Positions 17,549 through 58,077 of a stretch of DNA of 64,000 nucleotides are shown here, piece after piece (positions within the stretch are counted from its first letter, which is position 1; each line of letters opens with the position of its first letter). The translations under genes were made by a program, and so were the position numbers. This stretch comes from Candidatus Levyibacteriota bacterium (GTDB lineage Bacteria; Patescibacteriota; Microgenomatia; Levybacterales; UBA12049), in contig JAUSEW010000029.1 in the NCBI GenBank assembly GCA_030651475.1, positions 21,777-85,776 on the forward strand, given 5' to 3'. The notes beneath the pieces are model-generated. The model was not told where the DNA came from. It ran no database searches and was given only the letters and a program-made list of their open reading frames with translations.

Positions 17549-18085
17549 ATGAAGATAATTTTAATAGGAATTCAGGGAGCAGGAAAATCAACTCAGGGGA
17601 ATTTACTTTCGGAAAAATTAAAAATTCCTTATCTCTCAACAGGGCATATTTTTAGATTTCTGGCAAAAGAGAAAACTAAACTTGGCCGCTATATAAAAGA
17701 GATAATGAATGCCGGATATCTTATTCCGGATAAAAAAACAGTTTCTATTGTCAGCAATTATCTTAAACGTCCGGAATATGCTAATGGCTATATCTTGGAT
17801 GGTTTTCCGAGAACCCTTGATCAGGTAAAAGAATTTAAAAACGGAGTTGATAAAGTAGTTTATTTAAAAGTTTCAGATAAAGAGGCTCTCTGGAGACTTT
17901 CCTATAGAAATGGAGACAACAGAGAAGACGAGACCCTAGCTGCTCTTAGGAAAAGAATTGAGCTTTTTCATAAGCTCACAGAACCTGTTTTGGATTATTA
18001 TAAGAACAAAGGGAATTTAGTTGAGGTAGACGGAGAAAAAGCAGTTGAGGAAGTGCATAAAGAAATTTTGGAAAAGATAAAATAA
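17549..18085 (+). CDS. adk: adenylate kinase (short type, no zinc lid)
   Basis: P-loop GIQGAGKSTQ, GFPRTLDQ motif; ATG 17549 preferred over GTG 17531. Confidence 0.85.
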   Translation: MKIILIGIQGAGKSTQGNLLSEKLKIPYLSTGHIFRFLAKEKTKLGRYIKEIMNAGYLIPDKKTVSIVSNYLKRPEYANGYILDGFPRTLDQVKEFKNGVDKVVYLKVSDKEALWRLSYRNGDNREDETLAALRKRIELFHKLTEPVLDYYKNKGNLVEVDGEKAVEEVHKEILEKIK

Positions 18086-18107
18086 TATATCCTCTTAATT
18101 TTAAAAA

Positions 18108-18662
18108 ATGATCATTGTTTTTATCGGGCCACCATATGCCGGCAAAGATACTCAAGGAAGACTTTTAAGTCAGGAGTTTGGAAATATGCCCATTTTTAGT
18201 ATGGGTCATTTAATTCGTGAAGCACGAGAGTCTGGCAACGAAACGTTTATAAAAGCTTACGATGCATATGCTTTGAAAGGATTCCATCTTCCAACAGCGA
18301 TAAAATTTCCTTTACTTAAGGAAAAAATGGATCAAGCAAGAGACGGATTTATATTGGATAATTTTCCGGCAACAAAAGATGATCTTGTGATGCTTAATAA
18401 CTATTTATTGCAGGCAAATAAAAAAATTAATAAAGTAATATATATAGATATATCAGAGGAAGAGATGAGAAAGCGTTTTAAAAACGCATTCCGTGGCAGA
18501 AAAGACGATGATCCAGATATCGTAGCCACAAGGAGGGAAATTCAAAATCAGGATAGAGTTCCTGTCCTTGAATTTTATAAAAGTCAAAATCTTCTCTCGG
18601 AAATAAATGGCGAAGAAGATATAGATAAAATTCATAAAGAAATTTTGGAAAAGTTACAATAA
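18108..18662 (+). CDS. adenylate-kinase-like paralog with degenerate P-loop (GPPYAGKDTQ)
   Basis: 184 aa; same length and shared C-terminus HKEILEK with adk; DNFPATKDD in place of GFPRT. Confidence 0.65.
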   Translation: MIIVFIGPPYAGKDTQGRLLSQEFGNMPIFSMGHLIREARESGNETFIKAYDAYALKGFHLPTAIKFPLLKEKMDQARDGFILDNFPATKDDLVMLNNYLLQANKKINKVIYIDISEEEMRKRFKNAFRGRKDDDPDIVATRREIQNQDRVPVLEFYKSQNLLSEINGEEDIDKIHKEILEKLQ

Positions 18663-25653: not shown

Positions 25654-26808
25654 ATGGATTTTCGTGCTTATGTAAGTGTTGATAAGAGACGTAAGGCAGT
25701 AGAAGATAATTTAAAAGTTAACCTTTCTAATATTGGCAATTATTCCTTTGATTCAAAGCTGGCATCTTCAAGAAATTGCGAGAATATGATTGGAGCAGTT
25801 CAAATTCCATTAGGGATTGCTGGGCCTTTAAAAATAAAAAGCGATTTCTCTGAAGATGAAGTTTTTTTACCGTTAGCTACAACAGAAGGGGCTTTAGTTG
25901 CATCTGTAAATAGGGGATGTAAGGTAATTACTCTAAGCGGAGGAGTAACTGTTAATAGCCAAAGGATAGGAATAACAAGAGCTCCGGTTTTTGTGGTGAA
26001 TAATCAAAAAGAAGGTAAAAAGTTCGTAGAGTGGGTAAATTCTAGCTTTAAACTTCTTAAGCAAGTTACGGAATCCACTTCATCTCATCTGACCCTTTTA
26101 GATATAAAATCTACCTTCATGGGAAGAAATGTTTATTTAAGATTTAGATTTGATTCACAAGATGCAATGGGCATGAATATGGCAACAATTGCGTGTACCA
26201 AAGCGGCATCTTTTATAGAAAAAGAAACAAAAGCGCGATTAGTGGCGATTTCCGGGAATATGTGTGTTGATAAAAAGCCTAGTTTATTAAATTTTATTGA
26301 AGGAAGAGGGTATTCCGTTTCAGCTGACATATTAATCCCACGAAAAATTGTAGAATCTACGTTAAAGTCTAAAACAGAAAGTATCGTCGAAGTCGCGCAG
26401 CGCAAGCTAATGTACGGGTCTTTACTTTCGGGCAGTGTTGGGGCAAATGCTCACTATGCAAATATTTTATCAGCTATGTTTATAGCGACTGGACAAGACG
26501 CAGCGCATGTGGCAGAATGTTCTGTAGGTATAACAACAGCGGAAGAAATAAAGGGTGATCTCTATGTCTCAATATATCTACCCGATCTCGTGGTAGGAAC
26601 AGTTGGCGGAGGAACATCTCTTGAAACCCAAAAAGAAGCATTATCAATTATGGGAATTAGTGGTGGCAATAATGGAAAAAATGCAAGAAAATTAGCAGAA
26701 ATTATTGGAGGAGCTGTGCTCGCAGGAGAGATTTCCTTATTAGCATCTTTAGCGGATAATTCTTTAGCATCAGCTCATCGGAAATTAGGGAGGGGAGAAA
26801 AAATATAA
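25654..26808 (+). CDS. hmgA: 3-hydroxy-3-methylglutaryl-CoA reductase (class-I-like catalytic domain)
   Basis: 384 aa; ENMIG, DAMGMNM, GTVGGGT signatures. Confidence 0.9.
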   Translation: MDFRAYVSVDKRRKAVEDNLKVNLSNIGNYSFDSKLASSRNCENMIGAVQIPLGIAGPLKIKSDFSEDEVFLPLATTEGALVASVNRGCKVITLSGGVTVNSQRIGITRAPVFVVNNQKEGKKFVEWVNSSFKLLKQVTESTSSHLTLLDIKSTFMGRNVYLRFRFDSQDAMGMNMATIACTKAASFIEKETKARLVAISGNMCVDKKPSLLNFIEGRGYSVSADILIPRKIVESTLKSKTESIVEVAQRKLMYGSLLSGSVGANAHYANILSAMFIATGQDAAHVAECSVGITTAEEIKGDLYVSIYLPDLVVGTVGGGTSLETQKEALSIMGISGGNNGKNARKLAEIIGGAVLAGEISLLASLADNSLASAHRKLGRGEKI

Positions 26809-26812
26809 AATT

Positions 26813-27850
26813 ATGACAGGAATTGTTGGATACGGAACCTATATTCCGAAATATCGTCTTAGACTTTCTGAAATTGCCAAGGTGTGGGGAAAGGATACGG
26901 CCGAAATAGAAAATGGACTGCGTATTTCTGAAAAAGCTGTTCCTGGTTTTGATGAAGATGCCGTAACTATGGGAGTGGAAGCATCAAAAAAAGCCATTGC
27001 TATGGCAGGTATTAATCCTTCTTCTCTGCAAAGCGTATATTTTGGTTCAGAAAGTCATCCTTACGCTGTTAATCCTTCTTCAACAACACTTGGAGAATAT
27101 TTGGGTATAGGAAATAATTATTTTGCGGCAGATTTGGAGTTTGCCTGCAAAGCCGCTACAGCCGGCATGCAGATAACAGTGGGATTAATAGATAGCAAAA
27201 ATATAAAATATGGTTTGGTTGTGGGAAGTGACACTGCTCAAGGTAAACCTCACGATGCGTTAGAATATACAGCAGCGAGTGCCGCATGCGCGTACATTTT
27301 GGGGAATAAGGAAACAGAAATTATTGCAAAAATTCTGGAAATGTCATCCTTCTCATCCGACACTCCTGATTTCTGGAGAAGGGATGGAGCCAAATATCCA
27401 TCCCATTTTGGAAGATTTACTGGCGAACCGGCGTATTTTACTCACATAATTCAAGAGGGGAAAAATTTACTTGCAAAAAGCAAACTTAAGCCTGAAGATT
27501 TTGACTACTGTGTTTTTCATATGCCTAACGGTAAATTTCCAAGAGTTGTTGCTAAAAAACTTGGATTTACCTCCGGGCAACTAGCACAATCTCTTATAGT
27601 TGATAAAATTGGCAATCCGTATTCAGCATCTGCATTGATGGGATTAGCAAGCGTCCTAGATATTGCAAAACCAAAACAAAAAATATTCTTTGTTTCTTAC
27701 GGATCGGGTGCAGGATCAGATGGTTTCATATTTGAAACTACGAGTAGAATTTTACAAAAACAAAAAAAGATAATTACAGTCTCAAAGCAAATGGAAGATA
27801 AGATTTATATTTCCTATCCAACTTATTTAAGACAAACACACGTCATATGA
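26813..27850 (+). CDS. hydroxymethylglutaryl-CoA synthase (archaeal / short type)
   Basis: 345 aa; thiolase-fold HMGCS pattern, N-terminal GIVGYGTYIPKYRL. Confidence 0.85.
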   Translation: MTGIVGYGTYIPKYRLRLSEIAKVWGKDTAEIENGLRISEKAVPGFDEDAVTMGVEASKKAIAMAGINPSSLQSVYFGSESHPYAVNPSSTTLGEYLGIGNNYFAADLEFACKAATAGMQITVGLIDSKNIKYGLVVGSDTAQGKPHDALEYTAASAACAYILGNKETEIIAKILEMSSFSSDTPDFWRRDGAKYPSHFGRFTGEPAYFTHIIQEGKNLLAKSKLKPEDFDYCVFHMPNGKFPRVVAKKLGFTSGQLAQSLIVDKIGNPYSASALMGLASVLDIAKPKQKIFFVSYGSGAGSDGFIFETTSRILQKQKKIITVSKQMEDKIYISYPTYLRQTHVI

Positions 27851-28995
27851 AAATAAATATATTGGGAACTCATGCAACGAAATTTGGAGAGTTATGGAAT
27901 ATATCTCCGCGTGCATTAGCAAGGGAGGCAATGGAAAATGCATTAAATGCATCCGGCTTGAAAGCATCTGATATAGACGCTTTATATGTAGGGAATATGT
28001 TGTCCGGAATTTTGGGTAATCAAGCGAATTTAGGATCCTTGCTCGTTGAAGAGCTGGGTGTTCAAGTTCCCGCTTTTAGAATAGAAGGCGCTTGCGCTTC
28101 AGGAGGTTTAGCTTTGCATAACGCGATTAACAGTCTTAAAGCGGGGCAATATAAAACAGTTTTGGTTTTAGGTATAGAAAAAATGACAGATCATAGTCAA
28201 GATGAGATTACAAATGCTTTAATGTCTGCGGGATCGGACGAAGAGCGTTTGGCTGGTGCAACATTTCCCGGAGTATATGCGCTAATGGCCCAAGCCTATA
28301 TGCAGCAATATAAAGTAAGCGAAGAAGATTTGGCTTGCGTTTCCGTAAAAAACCATTATCATGGAACGCTAAATCCCAAAGCTCAATTCCAATTTCCCAT
28401 AACCATAGCCGATGTTATGAGAAGCGCAAAGATTGCTGATCCGCTCAAACTTCTAGATTGTTCTCCGATTTCAGATGGGGCTGCGGCAGTTGTTATTACC
28501 AGCGAAAATATTCTTAAAAAAAATAAGAAACCCATACAGATTATTGCAAGCGAAGTAGCCACAGACACGCTTAGTCTTCATGACAGAAAATCTTTTACCA
28601 GTTTGAGTGCCGTTGTTGAAGCATCTACGAAAGCGTATGGAAAAGCAGGATTAAAACCTTCGGATATTGATGTTGCTGAAATTCATGATTGTTTTTCAAT
28701 TTCAGAGGCGATTGCAACAGAAGATTTAGGTTTTTCTAAAAAGGGCGAAGGTGCAAGGGATATTGCCAAAGGCAAGAGAACGCTTTTTAAAGGGGATATT
28801 ATTTGTAATCCATCGGGAGGACTAAAAGCCTGCGGTCATCCTGTTGGAGCAACAGGCATAAAGCAGATAGTCGAGCTTACGGAACAGCTTAGAGGAGAAG
28901 CTGGGAAACGTCAGGTTGAAAAAGCAAGGATTGGTTTGGCTCACAATGTCGGGGGAAGCGGTACGATAGCGGCAATTCATATTTTACAAAAATAG
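27847..28995 (+). CDS. acetyl-CoA C-acetyltransferase (archaeal-type thiolase)
   Basis: 382 aa; thiolase pattern with active-site Cys (EGACASGG), HDCFSI, NPSGG. Confidence 0.85.
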   Translation: MKINILGTHATKFGELWNISPRALAREAMENALNASGLKASDIDALYVGNMLSGILGNQANLGSLLVEELGVQVPAFRIEGACASGGLALHNAINSLKAGQYKTVLVLGIEKMTDHSQDEITNALMSAGSDEERLAGATFPGVYALMAQAYMQQYKVSEEDLACVSVKNHYHGTLNPKAQFQFPITIADVMRSAKIADPLKLLDCSPISDGAAAVVITSENILKKNKKPIQIIASEVATDTLSLHDRKSFTSLSAVVEASTKAYGKAGLKPSDIDVAEIHDCFSISEAIATEDLGFSKKGEGARDIAKGKRTLFKGDIICNPSGGLKACGHPVGATGIKQIVELTEQLRGEAGKRQVEKARIGLAHNVGGSGTIAAIHILQK

Positions 28996-29000
28996 ATATT

Positions 29001-29303
29001 ATGATAACATCACCGGTAAAACTTTGGAGAAGGCAAAAAAATACATCAGCTCTTATAGGGAAAAAAGGGAAAATTTTGCAGTGGACAATTATTCGGGTTC
29101 CGGCTAAATCTTTTATTGATCAAGCGCCGTACCCTGTTGTAATTGTGAAAATGCAAAATGGAGAAAATATGATTGGGCAATTAGTTGACTGGCAGGAAAA
29201 AGATTTGATAGTAGGGAAAGACGTTATTGCTGTTTTGCGAAGATTGAGAACGGAAGGGAAAGAAGACGTTATCTACTACAACATTAAATTCAAGCCTCTA
29301 TGA
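29001..29303 (+). CDS. DUF35-family OB-fold protein (thiolase/HMGCS partner), lacking zinc-ribbon
   Basis: 100 aa; OB-fold pattern; no cysteines; position right after thiolase as in archaea. Confidence 0.6.
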   Translation: MITSPVKLWRRQKNTSALIGKKGKILQWTIIRVPAKSFIDQAPYPVVIVKMQNGENMIGQLVDWQEKDLIVGKDVIAVLRRLRTEGKEDVIYYNIKFKPL

Positions 29304-30367
29304 AAAAAATTCAAGTTTCTGCCCCGGGTAAGTTACATTTATTGGGCGAACACGTGGTAGTACACGGAAAACCAGCTATTATTGCAACGGTAAATAAACG
29401 CTGTTTTGTAGAAATTACTCCCCGAAAAGATAGGAAAATAGAAATTATTTCTGAAAATTTGAAAGCAAGTAAGATAGTTACGGAAAAAGAAATTATTGCA
29501 AAAACTAAAGAAGCGCAAACAAAATGGGAAACTTATATAAAAACTAATGAGATATCTCTTCTTAAGTCTATAGCTTCAGATCCCTTAGACTTTCCGATTA
29601 TTGTTATTGGTGAGACTTTAAAATATCTTAACAAAACTTTACCATTTGGTTTTACTCTATCAATAAAATCAGATATTCCAATTGGTTCCGGGATGGGATC
29701 TTCTGCGGCACTTAGTGTTTCTATAGCTGGTGCCATGTATTTATTGTTTAATAAAAATTTAGATAAAGAAGTTATAAATGAAATTGCCTATCTTGCAGAA
29801 CAAAAGAAACACGGCCTTCCGTCCGGAGGAGACAATGTTGCTAGTTGTTTTGGAGGAATGGTTTGGTATCGTAAAGAAACACCAGACTTAAAAATTATCA
29901 AACCAATTCCTTTTTCCTTCCCCCGAAAATTGGCAAAGAATTTTGTCGCCATTCATACAGGTATTCCAATTGAATCAACAGGCGAAATGGTAAGTATCGT
30001 ACGGGGACTATATCAAACAAAAAAAGATTTTGTTGAAAATATTTTATCAAGCCAGGAAAAACTAACACGAGAGCTTCTATCTGCAATAAAGGATGGCGAC
30101 GACACTCTAATGATACGTATCATTAGAGCGGGAGAGAAAAACCTTGAAGCGTTAGGGGTTGTAGGAAAAAAGGCACAAGCTATAATTAGGGAAATAGAAA
30201 AGTTAGGAGGAGCGGCAAAAATATCTGGAGCAGGAGGTATTAAGAATGGGTCGGGAATGCTTCTTGCTTACCATAAAACACCAGTAGCTCTTGATGAAGC
30301 TTGTTTGCAATTTAAACTTACGAATAGTAAAATAGCGCTTGGAGACGAGGGCTTAAGACAGGAGTAA
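29300..30367 (+). CDS. mvk: GHMP kinase, mevalonate kinase-like
   Basis: 355 aa; APGKLHLLGEHVVV N-terminus, PIGSGMGSSAA motif 2; contains 24-bp palindrome copy 3. Confidence 0.75.
   Translation: MKKIQVSAPGKLHLLGEHVVVHGKPAIIATVNKRCFVEITPRKDRKIEIISENLKASKIVTEKEIIAKTKEAQTKWETYIKTNEISLLKSIASDPLDFPIIVIGETLKYLNKTLPFGFTLSIKSDIPIGSGMGSSAALSVSIAGAMYLLFNKNLDKEVINEIAYLAEQKKHGLPSGGDNVASCFGGMVWYRKETPDLKIIKPIPFSFPRKLAKNFVAIHTGIPIESTGEMVSIVRGLYQTKKDFVENILSSQEKLTRELLSAIKDGDDTLMIRIIRAGEKNLEALGVVGKKAQAIIREIEKLGGAAKISGAGGIKNGSGMLLAYHKTPVALDEACLQFKLTNSKIALGDEGLRQE
30105..30128. repeat. 24-bp perfect palindrome CTCTAATGATACGTATCATTAGAG inside mvk coding sequence, copy 3 of 3
   Basis: read directly; 25 nt (30104-30128) identical to 1196-1220. 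Confidence 0.95.
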
Positions 30368-30371
30368 AATT

Positions 30372-31226
30372 ATGGTACCCATAAACTATGGAGGAAGAAT
30401 TGAAAGTAGAGGTCCTGAAACCTATAGGAGTCAGTCCTTATTAGACACTATTTTTCAAGCAACTGGTTTAGAAAATTTTCAAGGAAGTGCAGTTGTTATC
30501 GATTTAATGTCGGGTCCTGGAGGAATAGCGCTTAATCTTCAGAAAAAAGCCTCCAGACATTCTTATGCTGTTCTAGATTATGATCAGGAACAATTAGCCA
30601 AAATAGGGGAGCACGAGCCCGTAAATAAGATATTGGCTGATGTAAGGAATGTATCTTCTGTTGTTAAAGGAGAATCTGTAGATATCGCAACTGCTCGTTA
30701 TGGGATTAAGGATATACCTCAAGGGCAACAGCTTCAAGCGCTCAAAGGTATTAATGAGATATTGAGACCAGGAGGAGTTTTTGTGCTTACAGATATGATT
30801 TCCTTGGAAGGTGAAGGATTGCAGAGGTGGCTTAACATACAACATAGTCAAAAGCAGCAGCTTAGCGGAAGAGAAATTGAAAAAGAGGGAGAGTGTTATA
30901 TCCCGACAGAAAAAGAGTGGCTAGCGATGTTAAAAGAAGTGGGTTTTGAAGCGGAAGTTTTTGGTTATTATACAAGTCCTATTTCTACTGGGGATTGGCT
31001 TACGGGAAATCAATTTGGTAATCCAAAATCACCGGAAGCGGCCAGGAAAAAAGCTATTATGGACGAGATAATAATGAACGCTCCAGAAGGTGTGAAAAAA
31101 GCGTTTAATGTGCGACAAGGAGTGAATGGTATGGAAATTGATTATCCAGTTGTTATAATAAGAGCAGTTAAGAAAGTAGCAGAGTCTGGTTTGCCTACTG
31201 CTGGTGATTTATATGCCGCAAGCTAA
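30372..31226 (+). CDS. class I SAM-dependent methyltransferase
   Basis: 284 aa; motif I VIDLMSGPGGIA, motif post-I ILRPGGVFVL. Confidence 0.7.
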   Translation: MVPINYGGRIESRGPETYRSQSLLDTIFQATGLENFQGSAVVIDLMSGPGGIALNLQKKASRHSYAVLDYDQEQLAKIGEHEPVNKILADVRNVSSVVKGESVDIATARYGIKDIPQGQQLQALKGINEILRPGGVFVLTDMISLEGEGLQRWLNIQHSQKQQLSGREIEKEGECYIPTEKEWLAMLKEVGFEAEVFGYYTSPISTGDWLTGNQFGNPKSPEAARKKAIMDEIIMNAPEGVKKAFNVRQGVNGMEIDYPVVIIRAVKKVAESGLPTAGDLYAAS

Positions 31227-32190
31227 AAAGATTACTGTTTCGGCGCCGGGGAAATTAATGCTTTTAGGTGAGCATGCTGTTGTCTATGATCATCCCTGTT
31301 TGGTAACTGCTGTTGACCAAAGAATGCGGGCAACTGTTGAAACTTTAGATTCTTTAGAATTCCAATTGGAAGCAGAAGACGTAAAGGTTACCGGTTATAA
31401 AAAGCCTTTAAGCGAAGTTGGTATTGGAGATATCCCAAAGGGCGCAAAATTTGTAGAAATTGCTCTAAAAAATATTAATGAAAAATATCCTCTTAAAACA
31501 GGATTAAAAATAACAACTACATCGGAATTCTCTTCCCAATTCGGATTTGGATCTTCTTCCGCATCAACAGTCTGTACGATAAAAGCGGTTTCTGAAATTC
31601 TGGGTTTGAATTTATCTGAAAAAGCAATTTTTGATCTTGCGTTTAAAACTGTTTTGGATATTCAGGGAAAAGGATCGGGTTTTGATGTGGCAGCTGCGGT
31701 TTATGGCGGAACTCTGTATTTCGTAACCGGCGGAAAAGTAATTGAGCCTTTAGATATTAAATCATTGCCGTTAATTGTTGGATATAGCGGAGTAAAAGGA
31801 GACACAGTAACGTTGATGAACAAAGTAAAAGAGACTTTTGCCGATAAACAAGGTCGTCTTAATCAAATTTATAATAGTATTGAAGCCTTGGTTGATCAAG
31901 CAAAAATGGTACTTCTTAAAAGCGATTGGAAAACATTTGGAGACCTAATGAATCAGAATCAGAAATATTTAAGCGAATTAGGAATTAGTATTGAAAAACT
32001 TGATAATATGATTAAAGGCGCACTTGATGCAGGCGCTTATGGCGCAAAGCTTTCCGGCGCAGGAGGAGGGGATTGTATGATTGCTATTGCGACAGAAGAA
32101 AAAAAACAAGCAGTTGAGCAAGGCATCAATGCAGTTGGCGGAGAAGTTATCAATGTTGGCACCAACGCAGAAGGCGCAAGAGTGGAATAA
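31204..32190 (+). CDS. GHMP kinase (mevalonate / phosphomevalonate kinase; assignment ambiguous)
   Basis: 328 aa; APGKLMLLGEHAVVY, GFGSSSAS, KLSGAGGGDCMIA motifs; 23-nt overlap with upstream methyltransferase gene. Confidence 0.7.
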   Translation: MIYMPQAKKITVSAPGKLMLLGEHAVVYDHPCLVTAVDQRMRATVETLDSLEFQLEAEDVKVTGYKKPLSEVGIGDIPKGAKFVEIALKNINEKYPLKTGLKITTTSEFSSQFGFGSSSASTVCTIKAVSEILGLNLSEKAIFDLAFKTVLDIQGKGSGFDVAAAVYGGTLYFVTGGKVIEPLDIKSLPLIVGYSGVKGDTVTLMNKVKETFADKQGRLNQIYNSIEALVDQAKMVLLKSDWKTFGDLMNQNQKYLSELGISIEKLDNMIKGALDAGAYGAKLSGAGGGDCMIAIATEEKKQAVEQGINAVGGEVINVGTNAEGARVE

Positions 32191-32194
32191 AATT

Positions 32195-32971
32195 ATGGGA
32201 CATGAAGCATCATTAGTGCCAGATATTTTGCCTCCAGGTAGAAGAATTGCTCTGATAGATATAGATGGTACATTGACTGAGGGTCTTACCATCTCTTCGT
32301 TTGCTGAATACTTAGACAATAACGATTCTTTTAATTCATCTTCGTGGGATCATATGCAGGAAGATTTTTCTCGTTATAGCGCCAGCGATCATGGACATGC
32401 TGCTTATGAGCAATTTGCCGTAGATTTAGTATTGCATTATGCTGATGGATTAAGAGACTACAGAGTAAGCGATGTCGAAGCTATGGCTGGCAAGTTTTTT
32501 GTTTCTGTGCAAAGAAATGAGGTTCCTGAATACAGAGTGTATCCATTTTCTCCTCAGCTAGTTCATCTTATGAATAAAATAGGAACAACAATAGCAGTTT
32601 CCGGTTCTCCAGCTGAGTCACTTGCTCCGTTAAAACGCATTCTTAATTTAGGAGATTTAAGAGCTACTGCTATTGGACAAAAGAATGGAATCTATACAGG
32701 AAGAGTAGATATTAATTTGGCATTAGACTCTGAAAAGAAAAAGGTAGTTGGGGAATATATAGCTGAAGATACAGATAGCGCACGCTCTTTTGCTTTTGGA
32801 GATACGATGCATGATTTGCCCATGCTGGAAGCTGTGGGAAATCCTTTTGTGGTTGGAGATAATTCGCATTTACTAGCTGTTGCAAGAAGAAGGGGATGGT
32901 CTATAATTAATTCTGACAATGCTATTGATCAAGTAGCGCAGAGAATAAACACTTTATTTAAGAATACTTAA
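32195..32971 (+). CDS. HAD-superfamily hydrolase, subfamily IB-like
   Basis: motif I IALIDIDGTLTE, motif IV GDTMHDLPML; ATG 32195 chosen because ORF-track start 32081 overlaps upstream gene. Confidence 0.65.
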   Translation: MGHEASLVPDILPPGRRIALIDIDGTLTEGLTISSFAEYLDNNDSFNSSSWDHMQEDFSRYSASDHGHAAYEQFAVDLVLHYADGLRDYRVSDVEAMAGKFFVSVQRNEVPEYRVYPFSPQLVHLMNKIGTTIAVSGSPAESLAPLKRILNLGDLRATAIGQKNGIYTGRVDINLALDSEKKKVVGEYIAEDTDSARSFAFGDTMHDLPMLEAVGNPFVVGDNSHLLAVARRRGWSIINSDNAIDQVAQRINTLFKNT

Positions 32972-33948
32972 TGAAAGCAACTGCAGTAGCCCCGTCAAAT
33001 ATAGCATTCGTCAAATATTGGGGTAAAAAAGACGAAAAGCTTCGACTTCCTGAAAACGGCAGTATCTCCATGAATTTAAATAATCTTCAGACTACAACAA
33101 CTGTTGAGTTTAATAAAGATTTTAGAGAAGACTTAATTATCATTAACGATCAGAAAGAGGAAAATGAAGGAAGCAGAGCTATAAAGCATTTAGATAGAAT
33201 TAGAATTCTTGCAAAAATAAATTACAAAGCAAAAGTAGTAACTAAAAATAATTTTCCTACAGGTACCGGACTTTCTTCATCTGCATCAGGTTTTGCAGCG
33301 TTAACTTTAGCCGGCGCAAAAGCAGCTGGATTAAATCTGTCGGAAAAAGAATTGTCAATTCTTGCAAGACAAGGATCTGGTTCTGCTTGCCGTTCTATTC
33401 CAGGTGGATTCGTAGAATGGTTAGATGGGGATACAAGCGATACATCTTATGGCGTGTCGTTATATCCTAAAAATTATTGGGACATTGTTGATGTGGTTGC
33501 TGTTGTTAGTAAAAACAAAAAAGAAGTTAGCACGACTGAAGGACAAAAATTGGCAAAATCAAGTCCGTTTTTTCCGATTCGTTTAGCAAGAATAAAAGAA
33601 AAAATTAGATTAATAAAACAATATTTGAAGGAAAAAGATTTTAAAAATTTCGGAGAATTGTTGGAAGCGGAAGCATTGGAACTTCATGCAATTATGTTAA
33701 CCTCAACACCTTCGCTTATATATTGGTTGCCGGGAACTTTGAAAGTTATGCATGCTGTTAAAAGATGGAGAGCTGAAGGATTACAAGTTTATTTTACTGT
33801 TAATACAGGGCAGGATATTCATCTGATTTGTCAAAAAAAAGACGTTGAAAAAGTTGTTAAAAAAGCAGAAGAGATATTAGATGTTCAAAAAACAATTGTC
33901 AATTATCCTAGCAAAGGAGCGCATTTAATTTCAGCACATCTTTTTTAA
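32971..33948 (+). CDS. mvaD: diphosphomevalonate decarboxylase
   Basis: 325 aa; SNIAFVKYWGKKDE, GLSSSASGFAAL. Confidence 0.88.
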   Translation: MKATAVAPSNIAFVKYWGKKDEKLRLPENGSISMNLNNLQTTTTVEFNKDFREDLIIINDQKEENEGSRAIKHLDRIRILAKINYKAKVVTKNNFPTGTGLSSSASGFAALTLAGAKAAGLNLSEKELSILARQGSGSACRSIPGGFVEWLDGDTSDTSYGVSLYPKNYWDIVDVVAVVSKNKKEVSTTEGQKLAKSSPFFPIRLARIKEKIRLIKQYLKEKDFKNFGELLEAEALELHAIMLTSTPSLIYWLPGTLKVMHAVKRWRAEGLQVYFTVNTGQDIHLICQKKDVEKVVKKAEEILDVQKTIVNYPSKGAHLISAHLF

Positions 33949-34838
33949 AAAGTTCTTTTTTCTATAATTTCAACTAAATCTAAAAATTTCTTTTTATATT
34001 TTATTTCCATTTCCATATTTGCAATAATTATTTTAGCGCTCTTTATATTATCTTTAACTATCTCTTTTTGAGATGCTAAGTCTTTATGTTTTCGGTTGGT
34101 ATCAAATATATCGTCTTGAGATTGAAAAGCTATGCCCAATCCCAATCCTAATTCTTTGCAAAACCTTTCTGCGTGCGAAGTTAATTCTCCTGCCAAGGAC
34201 GCACCAATCAATAAGGGATAAATAAAAGAGTATCTTGCTGTTTTTAGATAGTTTATCTTAGAATTTAAAGTCGGTATTATTTTTTGGCGTGATTGAGAAT
34301 CAATATCGAGCATTTGACCCACTATTGTTCCATCAACCATATCGAAAAAAAACTTTCTTACTCTTTGAATTGCAGATTGATCAAAGTCCAAATTTAAATT
34401 TATAATTTCCGTAGCCCAATTGAAGAAAAGATCTCCTAAAAGAATTGCCTGTGAGTTACCGAAATGTTCATAATTTTTATTTCCCCTTTCTTTTTTTAAT
34501 TTCTCACCAATATATATATGAGAGGCATATATTCCATGACGCATGTTTCCTTTATCCATAATATCATCATGGATAAGTGCAAATATATGAAAGATCTCGA
34601 GTGCAATTAATAATTTCAGAACTTTTTCTGTTTCCTTTCCTCCAAAAGCCTGATATGTTAGAAATGCGATAAATGGGCGTATGCGTTTTCCGCCTGATAA
34701 AGTAATTTTTTTAGCATAGTTAATATAGTCAATAATTGAAGAATCTTTGGTATAATTAATAATGCTCTTCATTTTTTTATCAAGGTAGTCCTGGAGATAG
34801 GGGTCAAATTTTTGTTTAAATACTTCTAAGTCGTTCAT
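33945..34838 (-). CDS. short-chain trans-polyprenyl diphosphate synthase (FPP/GGPP synthase family)
   Basis: 297 aa; first DDxxD (LIHDDIMD) and second (FQSQDDIFD) Asp-rich motifs. Confidence 0.85.
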   Translation of the reverse strand: MNDLEVFKQKFDPYLQDYLDKKMKSIINYTKDSSIIDYINYAKKITLSGGKRIRPFIAFLTYQAFGGKETEKVLKLLIALEIFHIFALIHDDIMDKGNMRHGIYASHIYIGEKLKKERGNKNYEHFGNSQAILLGDLFFNWATEIINLNLDFDQSAIQRVRKFFFDMVDGTIVGQMLDIDSQSRQKIIPTLNSKINYLKTARYSFIYPLLIGASLAGELTSHAERFCKELGLGLGIAFQSQDDIFDTNRKHKDLASQKEIVKDNIKSAKIIIANMEMEIKYKKKFLDLVEIIEKRTF

Positions 34839-34842: not shown

Positions 34843-35625
34843 TTATTTTAATCTTGCTCCAAATCTTCTTTCTCTTTTAGAATAATCAATTAAAGCTCTT
34901 ACGAAGTCCTTCATATCGGCGTCCGGTAAAAGCTTTGAGATAGAGTAAAATTCTGAATTCTGGTTAAGCCAGCCAATGTCGGAAGTTCTTTGTTCGCCGC
35001 TAGTTCTTATTATTAGATCTGCAGGATGAATTTCTCCTTGACCATCTCTTAACCTTTTTAACATATCATGAGTAATTTTGGTATTTTTTGGAAGTTTTTG
35101 TATTTCCTGCATGATTCTTAATTCCTGATCTTCTCCTCCAAAATCAATTGCGATGCAAAGAATTTTTCCTTTGTTGTTTTTTGTCATATCTTCAACTTTT
35201 CGCATAGTATCTTTTAAGTTCAAGGGGATTCTATCTTTTCTGCCAATATGGATAAAGCGGCTTTTATTTTTTAAAAGGTCTGGCGTAATTTCTTTTATTG
35301 CTCCTTCAAAAAGTTTCATTAAATCCTCAACTTCTTTTTTTGACCTTTTCCAGTTATCGGCAGCAAATCCCCAAATAGTAATAGTATTTATAGGTAATTC
35401 CTGTAAATTACTTAAGACATTTTTTAGAACCCTATATCCTTGTTGATGTCCAATAATAGGAATGCTGTTTAGCCTTCTTGCCCATCGTCCATTACCATCA
35501 GGAATAATTAATAGATGATTAGGAAATTTTCCTTCAGGGATACTCTTTAAATCCGGAAATCTTTCGAAAATACTCTTTTTCATAAAGCAGATTGTAATTG
35601 TATCCTGAAAAATAGCAAAATGCAA
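34843..35625 (-). CDS. uppS: undecaprenyl-diphosphate synthase (cis-prenyltransferase)
   Basis: 260 aa; HLLIIPDGNGRWA, TIWGFAADNWKRS. Confidence 0.88.
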   Translation of the reverse strand: MHFAIFQDTITICFMKKSIFERFPDLKSIPEGKFPNHLLIIPDGNGRWARRLNSIPIIGHQQGYRVLKNVLSNLQELPINTITIWGFAADNWKRSKKEVEDLMKLFEGAIKEITPDLLKNKSRFIHIGRKDRIPLNLKDTMRKVEDMTKNNKGKILCIAIDFGGEDQELRIMQEIQKLPKNTKITHDMLKRLRDGQGEIHPADLIIRTSGEQRTSDIGWLNQNSEFYSISKLLPDADMKDFVRALIDYSKRERRFGARLK

Positions 35626-49467: not shown

Positions 49468-49902
49468 TTAAGGGTTCTCTATCTTTACGAAATCTCCCTT
49501 TTTAAAGTTATACTTCTCGGATAATCCCGCATTTATTTCCAGAACCGTATCGGATAGTTTTTCAGGACGATAAATAGCAGGATTTTGGTCTTTTTGCGGA
49601 GGCTGTAAGTTTTGATAAATTGCAACGATTCTATTATTGCCAATAAAAATAATATCAATTGGAAATTTCATATCTTTCATCCAAAAAGAATAATAAGAGG
49701 CAGTACCGAATGGAAAAAGCATACCTTGGTTTTGGGGAAGATTTGAGTATTTAGCCAAACCTATTTCTTTATCCCTAGAGCTTTTGGCAATGTAAAGATT
49801 AAAGCTGTGATTATTTATTGTAATTTTTGGCGTTTTTGCCAAAGTTGAAACACCAATTAAAAAAAAGGAAAGCGCCAAAAGGAAAAAAAACCTCTTTCTC
49901 AT
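49468..49902 (-). CDS. DUF192-family protein with signal peptide
   Basis: 144 aa; MLFPF...SFWMKDMKFPIDIIF pattern typical of DUF192. Confidence 0.6.
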   Translation of the reverse strand: MRKRFFFLLALSFFLIGVSTLAKTPKITINNHSFNLYIAKSSRDKEIGLAKYSNLPQNQGMLFPFGTASYYSFWMKDMKFPIDIIFIGNNRIVAIYQNLQPPQKDQNPAIYRPEKLSDTVLEINAGLSEKYNFKKGDFVKIENP

Positions 49903-50384
49903 AAATCTTTAGAAATTAATTCTGCGAGCCGGGTTGTAGATTGATCTTTTATTATTTCCGTAACTATAACAACAATTCCATTCACTTTTTTTGCCTGTCG
50001 TTCTTTATGATGTATTGAGGAATCACCTTTCGTTATTGCAATTATAGAGGGTTTGATTCGCGTTATTATCTCATCGTATTGATCATTGGTAATTAAATCC
50101 GGCAAAAGAACTACGTAGGTCACAATTTCAAGAGCTTCCAGAAGAGATGCTCTATCTTCTTGGGTATTTATGGGGCGATTTTTTCCTTTAAGTTTTTTGA
50201 TATTAGCGTCACTTTCCAAGAGAACAAATAAAGTATCTCCCTGTTTTTTCGCGTTTTCCAGGAAAGTTAAATGTCCGATATGCAAAATATCAAAGCATCC
50301 CCCAACCAGAATAATGCTTTCGTTATTTTTCCGGATTTCTTCTGCAATGATGGCAGCTTCTTCCACTGTTAAAATCTTTTTCAT
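49899..50384 (-). CDS. cytidylyl/adenylyltransferase-fold protein (RfaE domain II / TagD / RibL-like)
   Basis: 161 aa; (H/T)xGH motif GGCFDILHIGH. Confidence 0.6.
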   Translation of the reverse strand: MKKILTVEEAAIIAEEIRKNNESIILVGGCFDILHIGHLTFLENAKKQGDTLFVLLESDANIKKLKGKNRPINTQEDRASLLEALEIVTYVVLLPDLITNDQYDEIITRIKPSIIAITKGDSSIHHKERQAKKVNGIVVIVTEIIKDQSTTRLAELISKDL

Positions 50385-51841: not shown

Positions 51842-53242
51842 ATGGATGAGAATACGATTTTTCAAAACCCTAAGGTATTTGTGCCCTCCCAGCAAGAAGT
51901 TCCTTCTCCCTTGCCTGAATCGGAATTACCTCAAGATATGCAAGCGCAAAGCCCCAATAGGAATATTTTAAAATTTATTATAGCGTTAATTACTGTTGCT
52001 GTCTTAGTTTTTCTTTTTGTTAAGATGGTGATTCCCGGTTTGCAGAAACCAAAAGAAACTCAAGTTACGCTGTCGTACTGGGGTTTATGGGAAAGTCCTT
52101 CGGTAATGCAGTCGGTAATAACAAAGTTTGAAAAAGAGAACCCAAATATTAAAATTAGCTACGCAGTCCAGGATGTAAAACAGTATAGAGAAAGACTTGG
52201 TACCAGAATTAAAAACGGTACGGGACCTGATATTTTCAGTTTTCATAATACATGGCTACCAATGTTGTCTTCGGATCTTTTGCCTTTGCCAAAAGAAACA
52301 CTTACCAAAGAGGACTTTACGAAGTGGTTTTATCCTGTCGCAGGAAACGATTTAATTAAAAATGGGGCAATATATGGAATTCCGGTTGGAATAGATACTC
52401 TTTCTCTTTATGTCAACACGACACTTTTCGAGGGAGCTAATCTTCAGCCGCCGACCACCTGGGTTGATTTTGCCAATTATGCAAAAAGACTTACGATTAA
52501 AGATGCCGGTAATAAAATAACAACTTCAGGAGCCGCTTTGGGAACGTTCAATAACATTACTCATGCTCCGGATATAGTTTCTTTGCTTTTCGCTCAGAAC
52601 GGAGTAAATTTGTATGATATTCCTAAAACCTCTCAAGCCGCAAGCGAAGCGTTAATTTTCTATACAGCATTTGCAATGGGGAATAGTAATATTTGGGATA
52701 GCACTTTGGATCAATCAATGTTAGCTTTTGCGAAAGGAAATCTGGCTATGTATTTTGGTTACTCTTGGGACTTTTTTGCGATAAAAGCCATAAATCCCAA
52801 TCTTGCGTTTGCTATCTATCCTGTGCCTCATCTTGGCAGTCAAAATATGACAATCGCAAGTTATTGGGCAAATGGCGTTTCCGTAAAGAGCAGTCACCAG
52901 AAAGAAGCGCTTTTATTTATTAAATTTTTAGCCAAAAAAGAAACTGAAGAAAAACTTTTTACGGAAGAATCAAAAACCAGATTTTTTGGACAACCTTACG
53001 CGAGAACGGATTTAGCGGATTCTTTGAAAACTAATACTTTTGTATATCCTTTTATCTTACAGGCAAAAGATGCGGTTTCTTCGTTTTTCGTAGACAGCAC
53101 GTATGATAATGGTTTAAATTCCAAAATGAATGCTTATCTTGGCAAGGCAGTAGAGTCTGTTTTGGGAAATACGTCTCCTCAAACTGCGGTAGATGCTCTT
53201 TCGCAAGGAGTAACGCAAGTTCTCAAACAGTACGGCCAGTGA
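51842..53242 (+). CDS. extracellular solute-binding protein (sugar-type ABC transporter substrate-binding family) with N-terminal TM anchor
   Basis: 466 aa; size, TM anchor and SBP family-1-like pattern. Confidence 0.5.
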   Translation: MDENTIFQNPKVFVPSQQEVPSPLPESELPQDMQAQSPNRNILKFIIALITVAVLVFLFVKMVIPGLQKPKETQVTLSYWGLWESPSVMQSVITKFEKENPNIKISYAVQDVKQYRERLGTRIKNGTGPDIFSFHNTWLPMLSSDLLPLPKETLTKEDFTKWFYPVAGNDLIKNGAIYGIPVGIDTLSLYVNTTLFEGANLQPPTTWVDFANYAKRLTIKDAGNKITTSGAALGTFNNITHAPDIVSLLFAQNGVNLYDIPKTSQAASEALIFYTAFAMGNSNIWDSTLDQSMLAFAKGNLAMYFGYSWDFFAIKAINPNLAFAIYPVPHLGSQNMTIASYWANGVSVKSSHQKEALLFIKFLAKKETEEKLFTEESKTRFFGQPYARTDLADSLKTNTFVYPFILQAKDAVSSFFVDSTYDNGLNSKMNAYLGKAVESVLGNTSPQTAVDALSQGVTQVLKQYGQ

Positions 53243-53273
53243 AACGCCTCACCAATAATAGTATAATGCCCTC

Positions 53274-54155
53274 ATGCAAAAAAGTATAAAAAAGGCAGTT
53301 TTACGGACTCTTATTTATAGTGATATTTTCGACTATCCTCTTTCAAAAGAAGAGATTTGGAGATTTTTGATTGGGCAAAAAATTGGCAGGGAATCTTTTA
53401 AAAAAGAGTTAAAGAGTTTGGCTAAATCTGAATCTACGCCCTTGGGGTGTAGCTATAAAAATAATTTCCATTATCTTTTGGGTCGGGAAAAAATTGTAGA
53501 AAAAAGAATCGAAAGAGAAAAAATAAGCAGAAGAAAACTTAAAATTGCGAGAAAAGCAGCGAGATGGCTTTCGTATATTCCCACCACGCTTTTTGTAGGA
53601 GTAAGCGGAGCATTGGCGTTAAAAAATTCCCATAAAGATGATGACATAGATTTATTTATTGTCACTTCCAAAAACACCCTTTGGTTTACGAGATTATTGA
53701 TGGTTATCTTGCTTATGTTGATCGGACAGTACAGGAAGCGCAATGCAAAAGATGTTTGTGATAAAATTTGTTTGAATATGTTAATTGACGAAACGTCCTT
53801 GCAATTGCCGTTGAAACAGCAGGATTTATACGGCGCGCATGAAGTTATTCAACTAATGCCAATTTCTGTCAAAAACAATATGCATCACAGATTTTTGCAA
53901 GCAAATAAATGGACGGAAAAGTTTCTGCCAAACGCAATAGAAAGAACCAAAAGCGGGCAAAAAAAATCATTATTCTTAATTCATAATTCATTATTCATTT
54001 TAGAGTGGTTAGCAAAACAACTTCAACTTTGGTTTATTAATAAACATAAAACAATAGAAGTGGTTTCCGATAATTTTCTTGCTTTTCACCCCTTAAATTA
54101 CAGGAGAAAGATCCTTAATTTATATAATCAAAAAATAAAAAAATATGGAATTTAA
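53274..54155 (+). CDS. hypothetical protein with nucleotidyltransferase-fold motif
   Basis: 293 aa; GVSGALALKNSHKDDDIDLFIV fits GS-x9-13-DxD of Pol-beta-type nucleotidyltransferases. Confidence 0.4.
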   Translation: MQKSIKKAVLRTLIYSDIFDYPLSKEEIWRFLIGQKIGRESFKKELKSLAKSESTPLGCSYKNNFHYLLGREKIVEKRIEREKISRRKLKIARKAARWLSYIPTTLFVGVSGALALKNSHKDDDIDLFIVTSKNTLWFTRLLMVILLMLIGQYRKRNAKDVCDKICLNMLIDETSLQLPLKQQDLYGAHEVIQLMPISVKNNMHHRFLQANKWTEKFLPNAIERTKSGQKKSLFLIHNSLFILEWLAKQLQLWFINKHKTIEVVSDNFLAFHPLNYRRKILNLYNQKIKKYGI

Positions 54156-55155
54156 TTTAGTAGCTTGCGGGGGAACGTTTGACCATTTTCATAAAGGACA
54201 TAGGGAATTATTGAAGTTAGCTTTTTCTTTAGGTAAAAAAGTGATTGTTGGAGTAACAAGCGATAATTATCTCAAGGGTTCAAAATTCAAAATTCAACAT
54301 TCAAAGTTTGTAGAATCTTACGAAAAAAGAAAAGAGGAGGTTTTAGGTTTTATAAAAGAGGAGAAGGTCTTAGATAGGGTAGGGATAGTGGAAATAAATG
54401 ATTTGTTTGGACCTACGTTGTCCTATGATTTAGCAATAGACGCGATTGTCGTATCGGAGAGTACCAAAGAGGGTGCAAGAACTATAAATAAATATCGTAC
54501 GGATAAAGGATTACCCCGGCTAGAAATGTTCATCTTGCCAATGGTTTTGGCGAAAGACGGAGGGGAAATATCTTCTTTTAGGATAAGAAACGGAGAAATA
54601 GATAGGGAAGGGAGACCCTACATTAATCCTTTATGGCTTAAGCATAAGTTACTTTTAACGGAAGCAATAAAAAGAAGATTGGAAAAACCATTTGGCGTTA
54701 TCATAAAAGACCTTAAAGAATTACCTAGCCAAAATATTCAGTTTGTCATAACGGTCGGAGATGTTACTACGAAGAAGTTCAACGATTTGTATTTAAAACA
54801 GAATATCGCGGTTGTAGATTTTAAGGTGGGCAGAAAAATTATGTTTTCCAGAATCGAAGAGTTGGGATTTTCAGGGATAGAAATAGTAGTTAAAATTAAT
54901 AATCTGGCAGGCTGTCTTACTCCGGACATTTTTAAAGGAGTGCGGAATGCATTGAAGCAGGGATTGGAAAATAGGATAATTATTAAGATAGAAGGAGAGG
55001 AAGATTTGTCAGTATTGCCTTTGGTTTTAGCTTCGCCTCTTAACTGCGTTGTTTTCTATGGACAGCCGAATGAAGGAATAGTGCGCGTAGTGGTTTCGGA
55101 GGAAATTAAGAAAATTGCTTATGGGTTAGTTGATGGGTTTGAGATGCTGAAATAA
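54145..55155 (+). CDS. archaeal-type phosphopantetheine adenylyltransferase fused to putative DUF359 (GTP-dependent dephospho-CoA kinase-like) domain
   Basis: N-terminal domain GGTFDHFHKGH ... SSFRIRNGEID matches archaeal PPAT; C-terminal half has VGDVTT, VDFKVGR and GEEDL motifs. Confidence 0.55.
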   Translation: MEFNLVACGGTFDHFHKGHRELLKLAFSLGKKVIVGVTSDNYLKGSKFKIQHSKFVESYEKRKEEVLGFIKEEKVLDRVGIVEINDLFGPTLSYDLAIDAIVVSESTKEGARTINKYRTDKGLPRLEMFILPMVLAKDGGEISSFRIRNGEIDREGRPYINPLWLKHKLLLTEAIKRRLEKPFGVIIKDLKELPSQNIQFVITVGDVTTKKFNDLYLKQNIAVVDFKVGRKIMFSRIEELGFSGIEIVVKINNLAGCLTPDIFKGVRNALKQGLENRIIIKIEGEEDLSVLPLVLASPLNCVVFYGQPNEGIVRVVVSEEIKKIAYGLVDGFEMLK

Positions 55156-55195: not shown

Positions 55196-55224
55196 TTGAC
55201 AAGCAGTCTGTTTTAGGATATATT
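55196..55224 (+). promoter_or_regulatory. sigma70-like promoter for greA (TTGACA-17 bp-TATATT)
   Basis: read directly. Confidence 0.5.
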
Positions 55225-55235
55225 TGCGTTGTAAT

Positions 55236-55270
55236 ATCCCTCAAAATTAAACGCGGAGGGATTTTGTTTT
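55236..55270 (+). terminator. intrinsic-terminator-like hairpin (ATCCCTC...GAGGGAT + TTTGTTTT) in greA leader
   Basis: 7-bp perfect stem, 13-nt loop, U-tract, 12 nt before greA ATG. Confidence 0.45.
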
Positions 55271-55282
55271 AATAAGGAATAT

Positions 55283-55768: not shown

Positions 55769-56446
55769 TTGTCAATGGATGATCCTACGGTTGAAAAAGA
55801 AATGTTGAATCAAGTAATCGTTGAATCAGTAACAAAGATTCCCTTAGGTGGAAAAGAAGAATTTCTAACCGAAGTAATAGATGTTGAAAAAAGTGCTTGG
55901 CGTCCCGAGCTTCAGGCTTCAAAGAAAAAATTCGTTTCTAGATTAGAGATATTTCCTCAAGGTTTTATAGTTGCAAAAGTAGAAGGTAGAATAAAGGGAG
56001 TTACTACTTCCCAAATTACCACATATGATCCGTTAGAGAAAAAAACATGGAATGAGATTACAGATAACGGTATGATCAAAAGAACTCATAATCCCGCTGG
56101 AAATGCATTATACGTTGTGTCAGTTGCGGTAGCAGCGGACGCTCAAGGAATGGGTGTAGGAAGTAAATTAGTAGAAGAGCAAAAAAAAATAGCTAGGCAA
56201 TTAGGACTTAAGTTAGTCTTTCTAGGGGCTAGAATTCCAGGATACAATAAGTATTGCGAACAAAACGGAGAAATTTCCGTAGAAGAATATTTAGCGCTCA
56301 AGAATCAGAACGGCGAGTCAGTTGATCCCGAAATTAGATTTTATGAAAGACAAGGATTACGTGCCTCTAAAATTATTCCGGAATTTGAGCCAGATATCGA
56401 TAGCAGAAACTACGGAGTCGTGGTAGCTTGGGAGAATACGGATTAG
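55769..56446 (+). CDS. GNAT-family N-acyltransferase (paralog 1)
   Basis: 225 aa; motif A AQGMGVGSKL, motif B-like EIRFYERQG. Confidence 0.5.
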   Translation: MSMDDPTVEKEMLNQVIVESVTKIPLGGKEEFLTEVIDVEKSAWRPELQASKKKFVSRLEIFPQGFIVAKVEGRIKGVTTSQITTYDPLEKKTWNEITDNGMIKRTHNPAGNALYVVSVAVAADAQGMGVGSKLVEEQKKIARQLGLKLVFLGARIPGYNKYCEQNGEISVEEYLALKNQNGESVDPEIRFYERQGLRASKIIPEFEPDIDSRNYGVVVAWENTD

Positions 56447-57243: not shown

Positions 57244-58077
57244 ATGACAAATTTAAGAGAAAATGGCGTATTAATGGGTGTTGCTGTAGGCGTAAGGCAA
57301 GAATCGTTACTCGGTAAATACGAAGTTAGACCTTATAAGCCTGAAGATGCAATTACAATATATAACGAGCTGGAGGTACCAAATTGGGCACCTTGGCTAA
57401 GGGCATCAGCCGAAACTTTGGCAAAAAGAGCAGAGGTTTTCCCAGATGGGCAGCTTGCTGTATGGGAAGGAAAACGTCCAATAGTTAATATATCTCTATC
57501 TAGGTTTAATTACGATGGAAACCCAGACAACCTTTCCACATGGGATGAACTAATGGGAGTTCCCGCTACGGGCAAAGATACATTTGATCTAAATGGAAAT
57601 GCTTTAGGAATGATGTCAATTAATGTCCATCCAGATTATCAAGGTAAAGGTTTGACAAAAGTTGTAATTGATGCTGTTAAAGATAGAGCAGTTAAATTAG
57701 GCGTAACTCATATAATGGGTTCATTTAGACCGAGTCAGTTTGGCGAATATAGTACCCAGAATCCAAATGCTAGTATTAAAGAATATATTGATAAAAAAAG
57801 AAAAGAAGATAATATGCCTCATGATGCATGGTTAAGAGCATTGACAAAAAATGGCATGAGAATGTTGCGTATAGATGATGCAGCAATGGTAATACCAGAT
57901 GTAACAAGAAGTGAATTTGAAGATTATAAAAAATCATATAAGCCAGAAAAATGGAAACAAATAGCTCCTAGTGTATGGAGATGTGGGGAAACGGGAGTAT
58001 GGTTAGCTGGAGAGAGATCAGCCGTTTATGTCGAAAGTAATGTTTGGGGAATTTTGGACAAAAACGGAACCTCTTAA
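57244..58077 (+). CDS. GNAT-family N-acyltransferase (paralog 2)
   Basis: 277 aa; motif A YQGKGLTKVV; alignable by eye with 55769..56446. Confidence 0.5.
   Translation: MTNLRENGVLMGVAVGVRQESLLGKYEVRPYKPEDAITIYNELEVPNWAPWLRASAETLAKRAEVFPDGQLAVWEGKRPIVNISLSRFNYDGNPDNLSTWDELMGVPATGKDTFDLNGNALGMMSINVHPDYQGKGLTKVVIDAVKDRAVKLGVTHIMGSFRPSQFGEYSTQNPNASIKEYIDKKRKEDNMPHDAWLRALTKNGMRMLRIDDAAMVIPDVTRSEFEDYKKSYKPEKWKQIAPSVWRCGETGVWLAGERSAVYVESNVWGILDKNGTS

Follow-up and report, generated by a model that had tools for sequence, protein, structure and literature searches.

A probable bifunctional coenzyme A synthase of archaeal type, joining phosphopantetheine adenylyltransferase to a DUF359 dephospho-CoA kinase, in a Candidatus Levybacteria contig

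A single gene on a bacterial contig probably encodes a bifunctional coenzyme A (CoA) synthase of archaeal type, in which a phosphopantetheine adenylyltransferase (PPAT) is joined to a dephospho-CoA kinase (DPCK) of the DUF359 family. The DNA inspected, called the window here, is a 64-kb stretch of a 90,247-bp contig from Candidatus Levybacteria, a member of the candidate phyla radiation (CPR) with related genomes of about 0.6 to 0.8 Mb. The gene, at 54145..55155 on the plus strand, is complete (stop included) and runs uninterrupted from ATG to TAA as an open reading frame (ORF) of 336 aa. What the analysis shows is the identity and fold of the two domains, the conservation of their key residues, the bacterial nature of the host, and how widely the fusion occurs; the two activities and the donor nucleotide we infer. 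The fusion itself is not new: it was published for marine archaea in 2019 and is widespread in CPR, and the window gene is a bacterial addition to a known fused enzyme. No new enzyme, fold, or architecture is revealed.

The N-terminal half, residues 3 to 158 (54151..54618, plus strand), is an archaeal-type PPAT domain. An earlier note on this DNA had assigned it to archaeal PPAT rather than to bacterial CoaD, and the profile scores agree: the NCBIfam model NF001985/PRK00777 (COG1019) gave 154.5 bits against a curated cutoff of 104, over profile positions 4 to 152 of 157, whereas the bacterial CoaD model TIGR01510 gave 19.3 bits, below its cutoff of 103.3. The top match to this half in a search of PDB sequences was the Archaeoglobus fulgidus PPAT 3do8 (E 4.1e-17, residues 6 to 156), and bacterial PPAT structures matched only at E >= 0.17. 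Furthermore, this half was 45 to 50% identical to standalone PPATs of Methanobacterium and Odinarchaeota.

Both nucleotide-binding motifs of the nucleotidyltransferase alpha/beta phosphodiesterase superfamily, HxGH and ISxxRxR, were present, and their conservation was counted across 339 aligned fused homologs. The HxGH motif, H16-K17-G18-H19, is encoded at 54190..54201 (plus strand; cataaaggacat), and its residues were nearly invariant (H16 and G18 each in 338/339, H19 in 337/339). The second signature, ISSxRIR, spans I142 to R148 (54568..54588, plus strand), aligns with ISSTRIK of 3do8, and was conserved at S144 in 330 and at R148 in 333 of the 339 homologs. The cytidylyltransferase-like superfamily is diverse in function, and weak matches to the g3p_cytidyltrns, rfaE_dom_II, and RibF_rel models could be read as a sign that the domain adenylylates or cytidylylates another substrate, such as flavin mononucleotide (as archaeal RibL does), nicotinamide mononucleotide, or glycerol-3-phosphate, with the two domains serving another cofactor pathway. 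However, PPAT was the sole model to score above its curated cutoff, the others reaching 27 bits against 165 to 181 and 17 against 200; the best PDB match was an archaeal PPAT; and the adjoining domain is homologous to a dephospho-CoA kinase. A different substrate is thus very improbable.

The C-terminal half, residues 168 to 332 (54646..55140, plus strand), is a DUF359/arCOG04076 dephospho-CoA kinase domain. Its proposed kinship with the GTP-dependent DPCK of Thermococcus was borne out: Pfam PF04019 (DUF359) matched residues 208 to 332 at E 3.3e-24 and 85.3 bits, against a gathering threshold of 25 and over profile positions 1 to 125 of 126, and the PDB sequence search matched residues 171 to 332 to the GTP-dependent DPCK TK1697 of T. 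kodakarensis (8jvc, E 2e-16). The same Pfam scan placed CTP_transf_like at residues 8 to 149 (E 1.8e-13), so that both families were found in one protein, and it gave no match to CoaE (PF01121) at E <= 1. The motifs named in the earlier note all lie in this ORF: GGTFDHFHKGH at residue 9, ISSFRIRNGE at 142, VGDVTT at 204, VDFKVGR at 224, and GEEDL at 284.

TK1697 has been shown to have GTP-dependent DPCK activity, and deleting its gene makes the archaeon auxotrophic for CoA (Shimosaka et al. 2019, mBio, PMC6650551). In the same study, function was impaired in the mutants D48A, which was severely defective, and D67A, and less so in D125A (PMC6650551). Residue equivalences with TK1697 were taken from a phmmer alignment to 8jvc. 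By this alignment Asp48 corresponds to D206 (codon gat, 54760..54762), Asp67 to D225 (gat, 54817..54819), and Asp125 to D287 (gat, 55003..55005, within GEEDL), all on the plus strand, and each of the three aspartates was conserved in 339/339 fused homologs. R230, G284, E285, Y305, and G306 were likewise invariant (339/339). Since the PPAT motifs and the DPCK residues are both conserved, both halves appear to be under purifying selection as active enzymes.

The two halves are joined by a short junction, residues 159 to 167 (54619..54645, plus strand), between the end of the PPAT and the start of TK1697 homology. Standalone archaeal PPATs stop just past the GEIDRDGK motif, and the alignment to TK1697 begins at residue 171, which leaves a junction of only about 10 residues. 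An AlphaFold2 model of the fusion, built from a 44-sequence alignment, had a mean predicted local distance difference test score (pLDDT) of 90.9 and a predicted template modelling score (pTM) of 0.87, and the junction was confidently modelled, with 10-residue blocks across residues 151 to 180 at a mean pLDDT of 93 to 97. Foldseek searches of the PDB with the model returned the TK1697 structures 8jvc, 8jvg_A/B, and 8jvf at E 1e-15 to 1e-10 and target template modelling (TM) scores of 0.79 to 0.87; they also returned 3do8_A/B at E 2.7e-08 to 5.2e-08 and target TM 0.79 to 0.84, with bacterial CoaD structures at about 0.6. The DUF359 domain adopts a thiamine-pyrophosphokinase-like fold rather than that of a P-loop kinase.

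By the proposed mechanism, the N-terminal domain would convert 4'-phosphopantetheine and ATP to dephospho-CoA and pyrophosphate through the HxGH (H16 to H19) and ISSxRIR (142 to 148) motifs. The C-terminal domain would then employ the acidic triad D206/D225/D287 to transfer a phosphate to the 3'-OH of dephospho-CoA, yielding CoA, and the phosphate donor for this step would probably be GTP, by analogy with TK1697. The tight junction and the confident, rigid model (high pTM) suggest that the protein could act as a rigid two-domain unit, with a fixed 1:1 stoichiometry of the two activities and possibly a hand-over of dephospho-CoA from one site to the other. We infer this channeling, like the salvage and physiological role considered below, from the model and the gene content.

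A narrower role for the C-terminal half was also considered, in which only the PPAT half is catalytic and the DUF359 half is regulatory or ligand binding (sensing, for example, CoA or dephospho-CoA) or phosphorylates another substrate. Three points agree with this: the NCBI name of the protein mentions PPAT only, the DPCK equivalog score is 80.8 bits against a cutoff of 300, and a single DUF359 family member has been characterised so far. Against these stand the invariance in all 339 homologs of the three aspartates on which TK1697 function depends, together with R230, G284-E285, and Y305-G306; the recurrence, across two domains of life, of fusions with the enzyme that acts one step earlier; and a fold like that of 8jvc/8jvg (TM 0.79 to 0.87). 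A noncatalytic or otherwise directed DUF359 half is accordingly judged quite improbable.

Several results nevertheless weigh against reading the protein as a bifunctional CoA synthase. The Thermococcales GTP-dependent DPCK model NF041125, the equivalog just mentioned, covered residues 171 to 328 with a score far under its cutoff, and membership or orthology is therefore established at the family level only; this model is lineage specific, and failing its cutoff excludes the narrow equivalog only, not membership in the DUF359 family. Likewise, the narrow Thermococcales PPAT equivalog gave 89.4 bits against a cutoff of 290, and the C-terminal half is about 29% identical to TK1697. The functional assignment of the bacterial fused clade extends from one assayed archaeal homolog, from which GTP as donor is also probably inherited. 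Finally, the search for CoaD, CoaE, and the upstream steps, described below, covers 64 kb of the genome.

The host contig is clearly bacterial and belongs to CPR (Candidatus Levybacteria). The fusion protein was 100% identical to an NCBI Candidatus Levybacteria entry carrying PF01467 and PF04019, of which the product name is pantetheine-phosphate adenylyltransferase and the kinase half is not named. The transcription elongation factor gene greA lies directly 3' of the fusion gene, and the window holds bacterial genes for RecA/RecX, RNase Y, MurB, LysS, TsaD, and VanW, as well as for sigma-70, RpoA with a bacterial C-terminal domain, L17, EF-G/EF-Tu, and the S10 operon. An archaeal contig, or a chimeric one (misassembled or misbinned), on which the fusion gene is not truly bacterial might be suspected from the archaeal type of both domains and from the identity of the PPAT half to the Methanobacterium and Odinarchaeota enzymes given above. 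However, greA and the other bacterial genes surround the fusion, and the gene order SBP, 293-aa ORF, fusion, greA was shared by about 27 independent Levybacteria-like assemblies, one of which is a closed 762-kb Levyibacteriota chromosome. Because this order recurs, archaeal contamination as the source of the gene was rejected on gene context, and the probability left to it is negligible.

A mevalonate-pathway cluster, also claimed in the earlier note, was found at 25654-34838 in the window. It comprises genes for HMG-CoA reductase, an HMG-CoA-synthase-like condensing enzyme, thiolase, and a small DUF35-type OB-fold protein (29001-29303), followed by two GHMP kinases, a methyltransferase, a HAD hydrolase, diphosphomevalonate decarboxylase, and one or more polyprenyl synthases; a UPP synthase gene follows the cluster at 34843-35625. 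Three of these enzymes consume CoA (thiolase, the HMG-CoA-synthase-like enzyme, and HMG-CoA reductase); their genes occupy 25654-28995 on the contig that carries the fusion, and the organism therefore needs CoA. The fusion would supply it to these three enzymes. As a side observation, the trio of thiolase, HMG-CoA-synthase-like, and DUF35 genes resembles an archaeal arrangement.

Scanning of ORFs in the 64-kb window turned up no domain of CoaD, CoaE, CoaBC, or PanK. Because the genome is reduced and no genes for upstream CoA steps were seen in the window, the substrate is proposed to be salvaged, probably as host-derived 4'-phosphopantetheine or as pantetheine. A further possibility is that the fusion is bifunctional yet redundant, the genome also encoding CoaD and CoaE elsewhere and the fusion being an accessory salvage enzyme acquired horizontally. 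The extent inspected leaves room for this, 64 kb having been examined of a 90-kb source contig and of related genomes of the size given above. In the window, however, neither gene was found, and the fusion is syntenic in about 27 Levybacteria-like genomes and present in several CPR classes, which fits a core gene. Such redundancy is, moreover, uncommon in CPR genomes below 1 Mb, and this too was counted against it. We consider a redundant fusion unlikely.

Two kinds of candidate for the canonical enzymes were examined in the window and rejected. A standalone cytidylyltransferase-like protein of 161 aa (49899..50384, minus strand) was rejected as a canonical CoaD because it scored 116.5 bits with rfaE_dom_II and 19.2 with TIGR01510 (cutoff 103.3); it is closest to RfaE domain II (heptose-1-phosphate adenylyltransferase), under the cutoff of 181.5 for that model. 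In 27 loci this protein is conserved at a position about 3 to 4 kb upstream of the fusion. Two P-loop kinases of about 200 aa at 17531-18662 were rejected as CoA-pathway kinases, both belonging to the adenylate-kinase family: they are tandem genes of 184 aa each on the plus strand, at 17531-18085 and 18108-18662, with 120.4 and 79.9 bits, respectively, to the ADK model. The two adenylate kinase genes lie within the ribosomal-protein/SecY operon region, where one is usual in bacteria.

The fusion family is abundant. In a set of 5.8 billion proteins, the best 120 matches all (120/120) carried PF01467 and PF04019 at about 330 to 350 aa. A representative set at 50% identity gave 4664 matches at E <= 0.001, with 730 at E <= 1e-30, and the best 150 of the 4664 representatives all belonged to this fusion family, nearly all of them full length. 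Named genomes with the fusion included Levybacteria, Roizmanbacteria, other Microgenomates, Paceibacterota, and Yanofskybacteria. This DPCK family, introduced in 2019 as archaeal, thus occurs widely in one bacterial superphylum, where it is always fused to an archaeal-type PPAT. A product name that mentions PPAT only hides the probable dephospho-CoA kinase, and automated metabolic reconstructions of CPR may consequently count the final step of CoA synthesis as absent. A limited literature search found no paper on DUF359 or DPCK in CPR/Patescibacteria, which is not proof that the occurrence is unpublished, and the bacterial occurrence of the fusion appears to be under-described. Many third-party-annotation metagenome-assembled genomes titled "uncultured Gammaproteobacteria bacterium" or "Pseudomonadales" carried the CPR fusion (loci L001, L007, L009, L020, L022, L025, and others). 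In one of them, L001, identities to the window were 66% for the fusion, 91% for GreA, and 88% for SBP, and in the Levybacteria-like cases the neighbours were syntenic and highly similar; the names given to these records seem to be mislabels or placeholder taxonomy.

A three-domain protein of about 485 to 519 aa, with an archaeal-type nicotinamide mononucleotide adenylyltransferase (NMNAT) ahead of the PPAT and DUF359 domains, was encoded in 14 of the 80 related loci (L028, L033, L034, L044, L045, L046, L050, L051, L052, L053, L059, L062, L065, and L067), mostly from Roizmanbacteria and Microgenomates; an example of 519 aa lies at 7473-9032 on the plus strand of L062. The NMNAT part of these proteins scored 119 to 122 bits with PRK01153 (cutoff 127) and 111 to 115 with TIGR01527 (cutoff 181). 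Such a protein would join nucleotide-cofactor steps of NAD and CoA synthesis in one polypeptide.

The wider distribution invites a more general proposal, to which we give somewhat less than an even chance: that large parts of CPR (Levybacteria, Roizmanbacteria, other Microgenomates, Paceibacteria, and Yanofskybacteria) make CoA solely through a fused archaeal PPAT and non-P-loop DPCK, without CoaD or CoaE, and that some lineages do so with a three-enzyme NMNAT-PPAT-DPCK protein. If this is true, the DUF359 DPCK would be a trait shared by archaea and CPR, arising through ancient inter-domain transfer or independent fusion, and a minimal CoA salvage from host-derived 4'-phosphopantetheine in episymbiotic bacteria would be implied. 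The window gene itself bears on the CoA supply of ultrasmall host-dependent bacteria, probably by salvage from 4'-phosphopantetheine, and, alongside the mevalonate cluster of archaeal style that the contig also carries, on gene sharing between archaea and CPR.

The closest known system is the fusion of PPAT and arCOG04076 in marine group II/III (MGII/III) archaea, which served as a clue to the DPCK function of arCOG04076 (Shimosaka et al. 2019, PMC6650551; also PMC6393860). PSI-BLAST in that work retrieved no homologs beyond archaeal arCOG04076 members (PMC6650551). The MGII/III Euryarchaeota fusions (Poseidoniales, e.g., AIF21550.1) have the same domain content and order, PPAT and then DUF359, with a similar length (about 330 to 365 aa), collinearity over residues 9 to 322, and the same catalytic motifs; they differ in being only 31 to 35% identical and in having archaeal hosts, whereas the host of the window gene is bacterial. 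Among the loci compared here, the same architecture occurred in three from marine group II archaea (L064, L071, and L075), beside an Orc1/Cdc6-like gene. A search with the L071 protein returned a large Poseidoniaceae/Thalassarchaeaceae family, some members of which are named "UPF0218 family/phosphopantetheine adenylyltransferase" by JGI, and its nearest matches outside MGII were also proteins of about 490 to 513 aa.

The halves also have standalone counterparts. TK1697 (8jvc/8jvf/8jvg; DUF359/UPF0218/arCOG04076) is homologous across the whole C-terminal half and shares the GEEDL and YGQP motifs, but it is a standalone protein of 177 aa from a hyperthermophilic archaeon. Archaeal PPATs (COG1019; A. 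fulgidus 3do8, the P. abyssi PPAT, and TK2128) have the same HxGH/ISSxRIR motifs and fold as the N-terminal half but are standalone proteins of about 150 to 160 aa, ending where the window junction begins. Bacterial CoaD and CoaE carry out the same two reactions but are encoded by separate genes in typical bacteria. A PPAT/DPCK fusion has been noted in eukaryotes as COASY (PMC6650551). It has the same two consecutive activities, in the same order, as the window protein. The PPAT domain of COASY belongs to the eukaryotic/archaeal type rather than to that of bacterial CoaD, and the COASY kinase is a P-loop, CoaE-type, ATP-dependent DPCK with a fold unrelated to DUF359; the architectures of COASY and of the window fusion are therefore convergent.

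Comparison of the separate halves bears on the origin of the fusion. The window PPAT half resembles standalone PPATs of archaea (45 to 50% identity, to those of Methanobacterium and Odinarchaeota) more than it does the MGII fusions (31 to 35%), and the DPCK half is about 30 to 32% identical to the latter. In neighbour-joining trees with very thin archaeal sampling, all the fusions grouped as a single clan in 41/200 bootstraps for PPAT, and CPR was monophyletic in 2/200 for PPAT and 17/200 for DPCK. These rough trees lend no support to a single fused ancestor of the CPR and archaeal fusions, and they speak neither for nor against one fusion event with later inter-domain transfer.

The genomic neighbourhood of the fusion is not a conserved CoA operon: no CoA-pathway neighbour was found in the related loci compared, and the arrangement with SBP, the 293-aa ORF, and greA is lineage synteny of Levybacteria. 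The more distant CPR loci had different neighbours, for example a LeuRS gene and a NadE-like gene. The 293-aa ORF (53274..54155, plus strand), whose stop end overlaps the fusion gene start by 11 nt, lies directly upstream of the fusion in 22 Levybacteria-like loci and is absent in others. This ORF alone had no Pfam or NCBIfam match and no match in the PDB sequence search; among its homologs, 16 of 21 weakly matched PF18765 (Pol-beta nucleotidyltransferase; best E 7.5e-05), and G112, D124, and D126 were invariant. It was examined as a CoA-pathway partner and set aside, the weak Pol-beta nucleotidyltransferase signature being all that was found. A promoter-like site lies at 53239-53267, just 5' of the start of this ORF, and the arrangement suggests that it and the fusion gene probably share a transcript as operon partners.

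The best sigma-70-like promoter match of the region, TTGACA-17-TATATT (11/12), lies downstream of the fusion at 55196-55224 on the plus strand. In the interval between the fusion and greA (55196-55272, plus strand), a 6-bp hairpin (55237-55242/55256-55261) with a 13-nt loop is followed by a T-run before the greA start codon; a terminator scan gave no call there, and the hairpin and T-run may form a leader- or attenuator-like element. Just downstream of greA, a gene for a GNAT acetyltransferase, a user of acetyl-CoA, lies at 55769-56446 on the plus strand. An ORF of 277 aa farther on (57244-58077, plus strand) had no family match of its own; tblastn gave weak matches of 27 to 29% in three loci, nearly coinciding with the GNAT matches of those loci, and the ORF may be a distant paralog of the GNAT gene.

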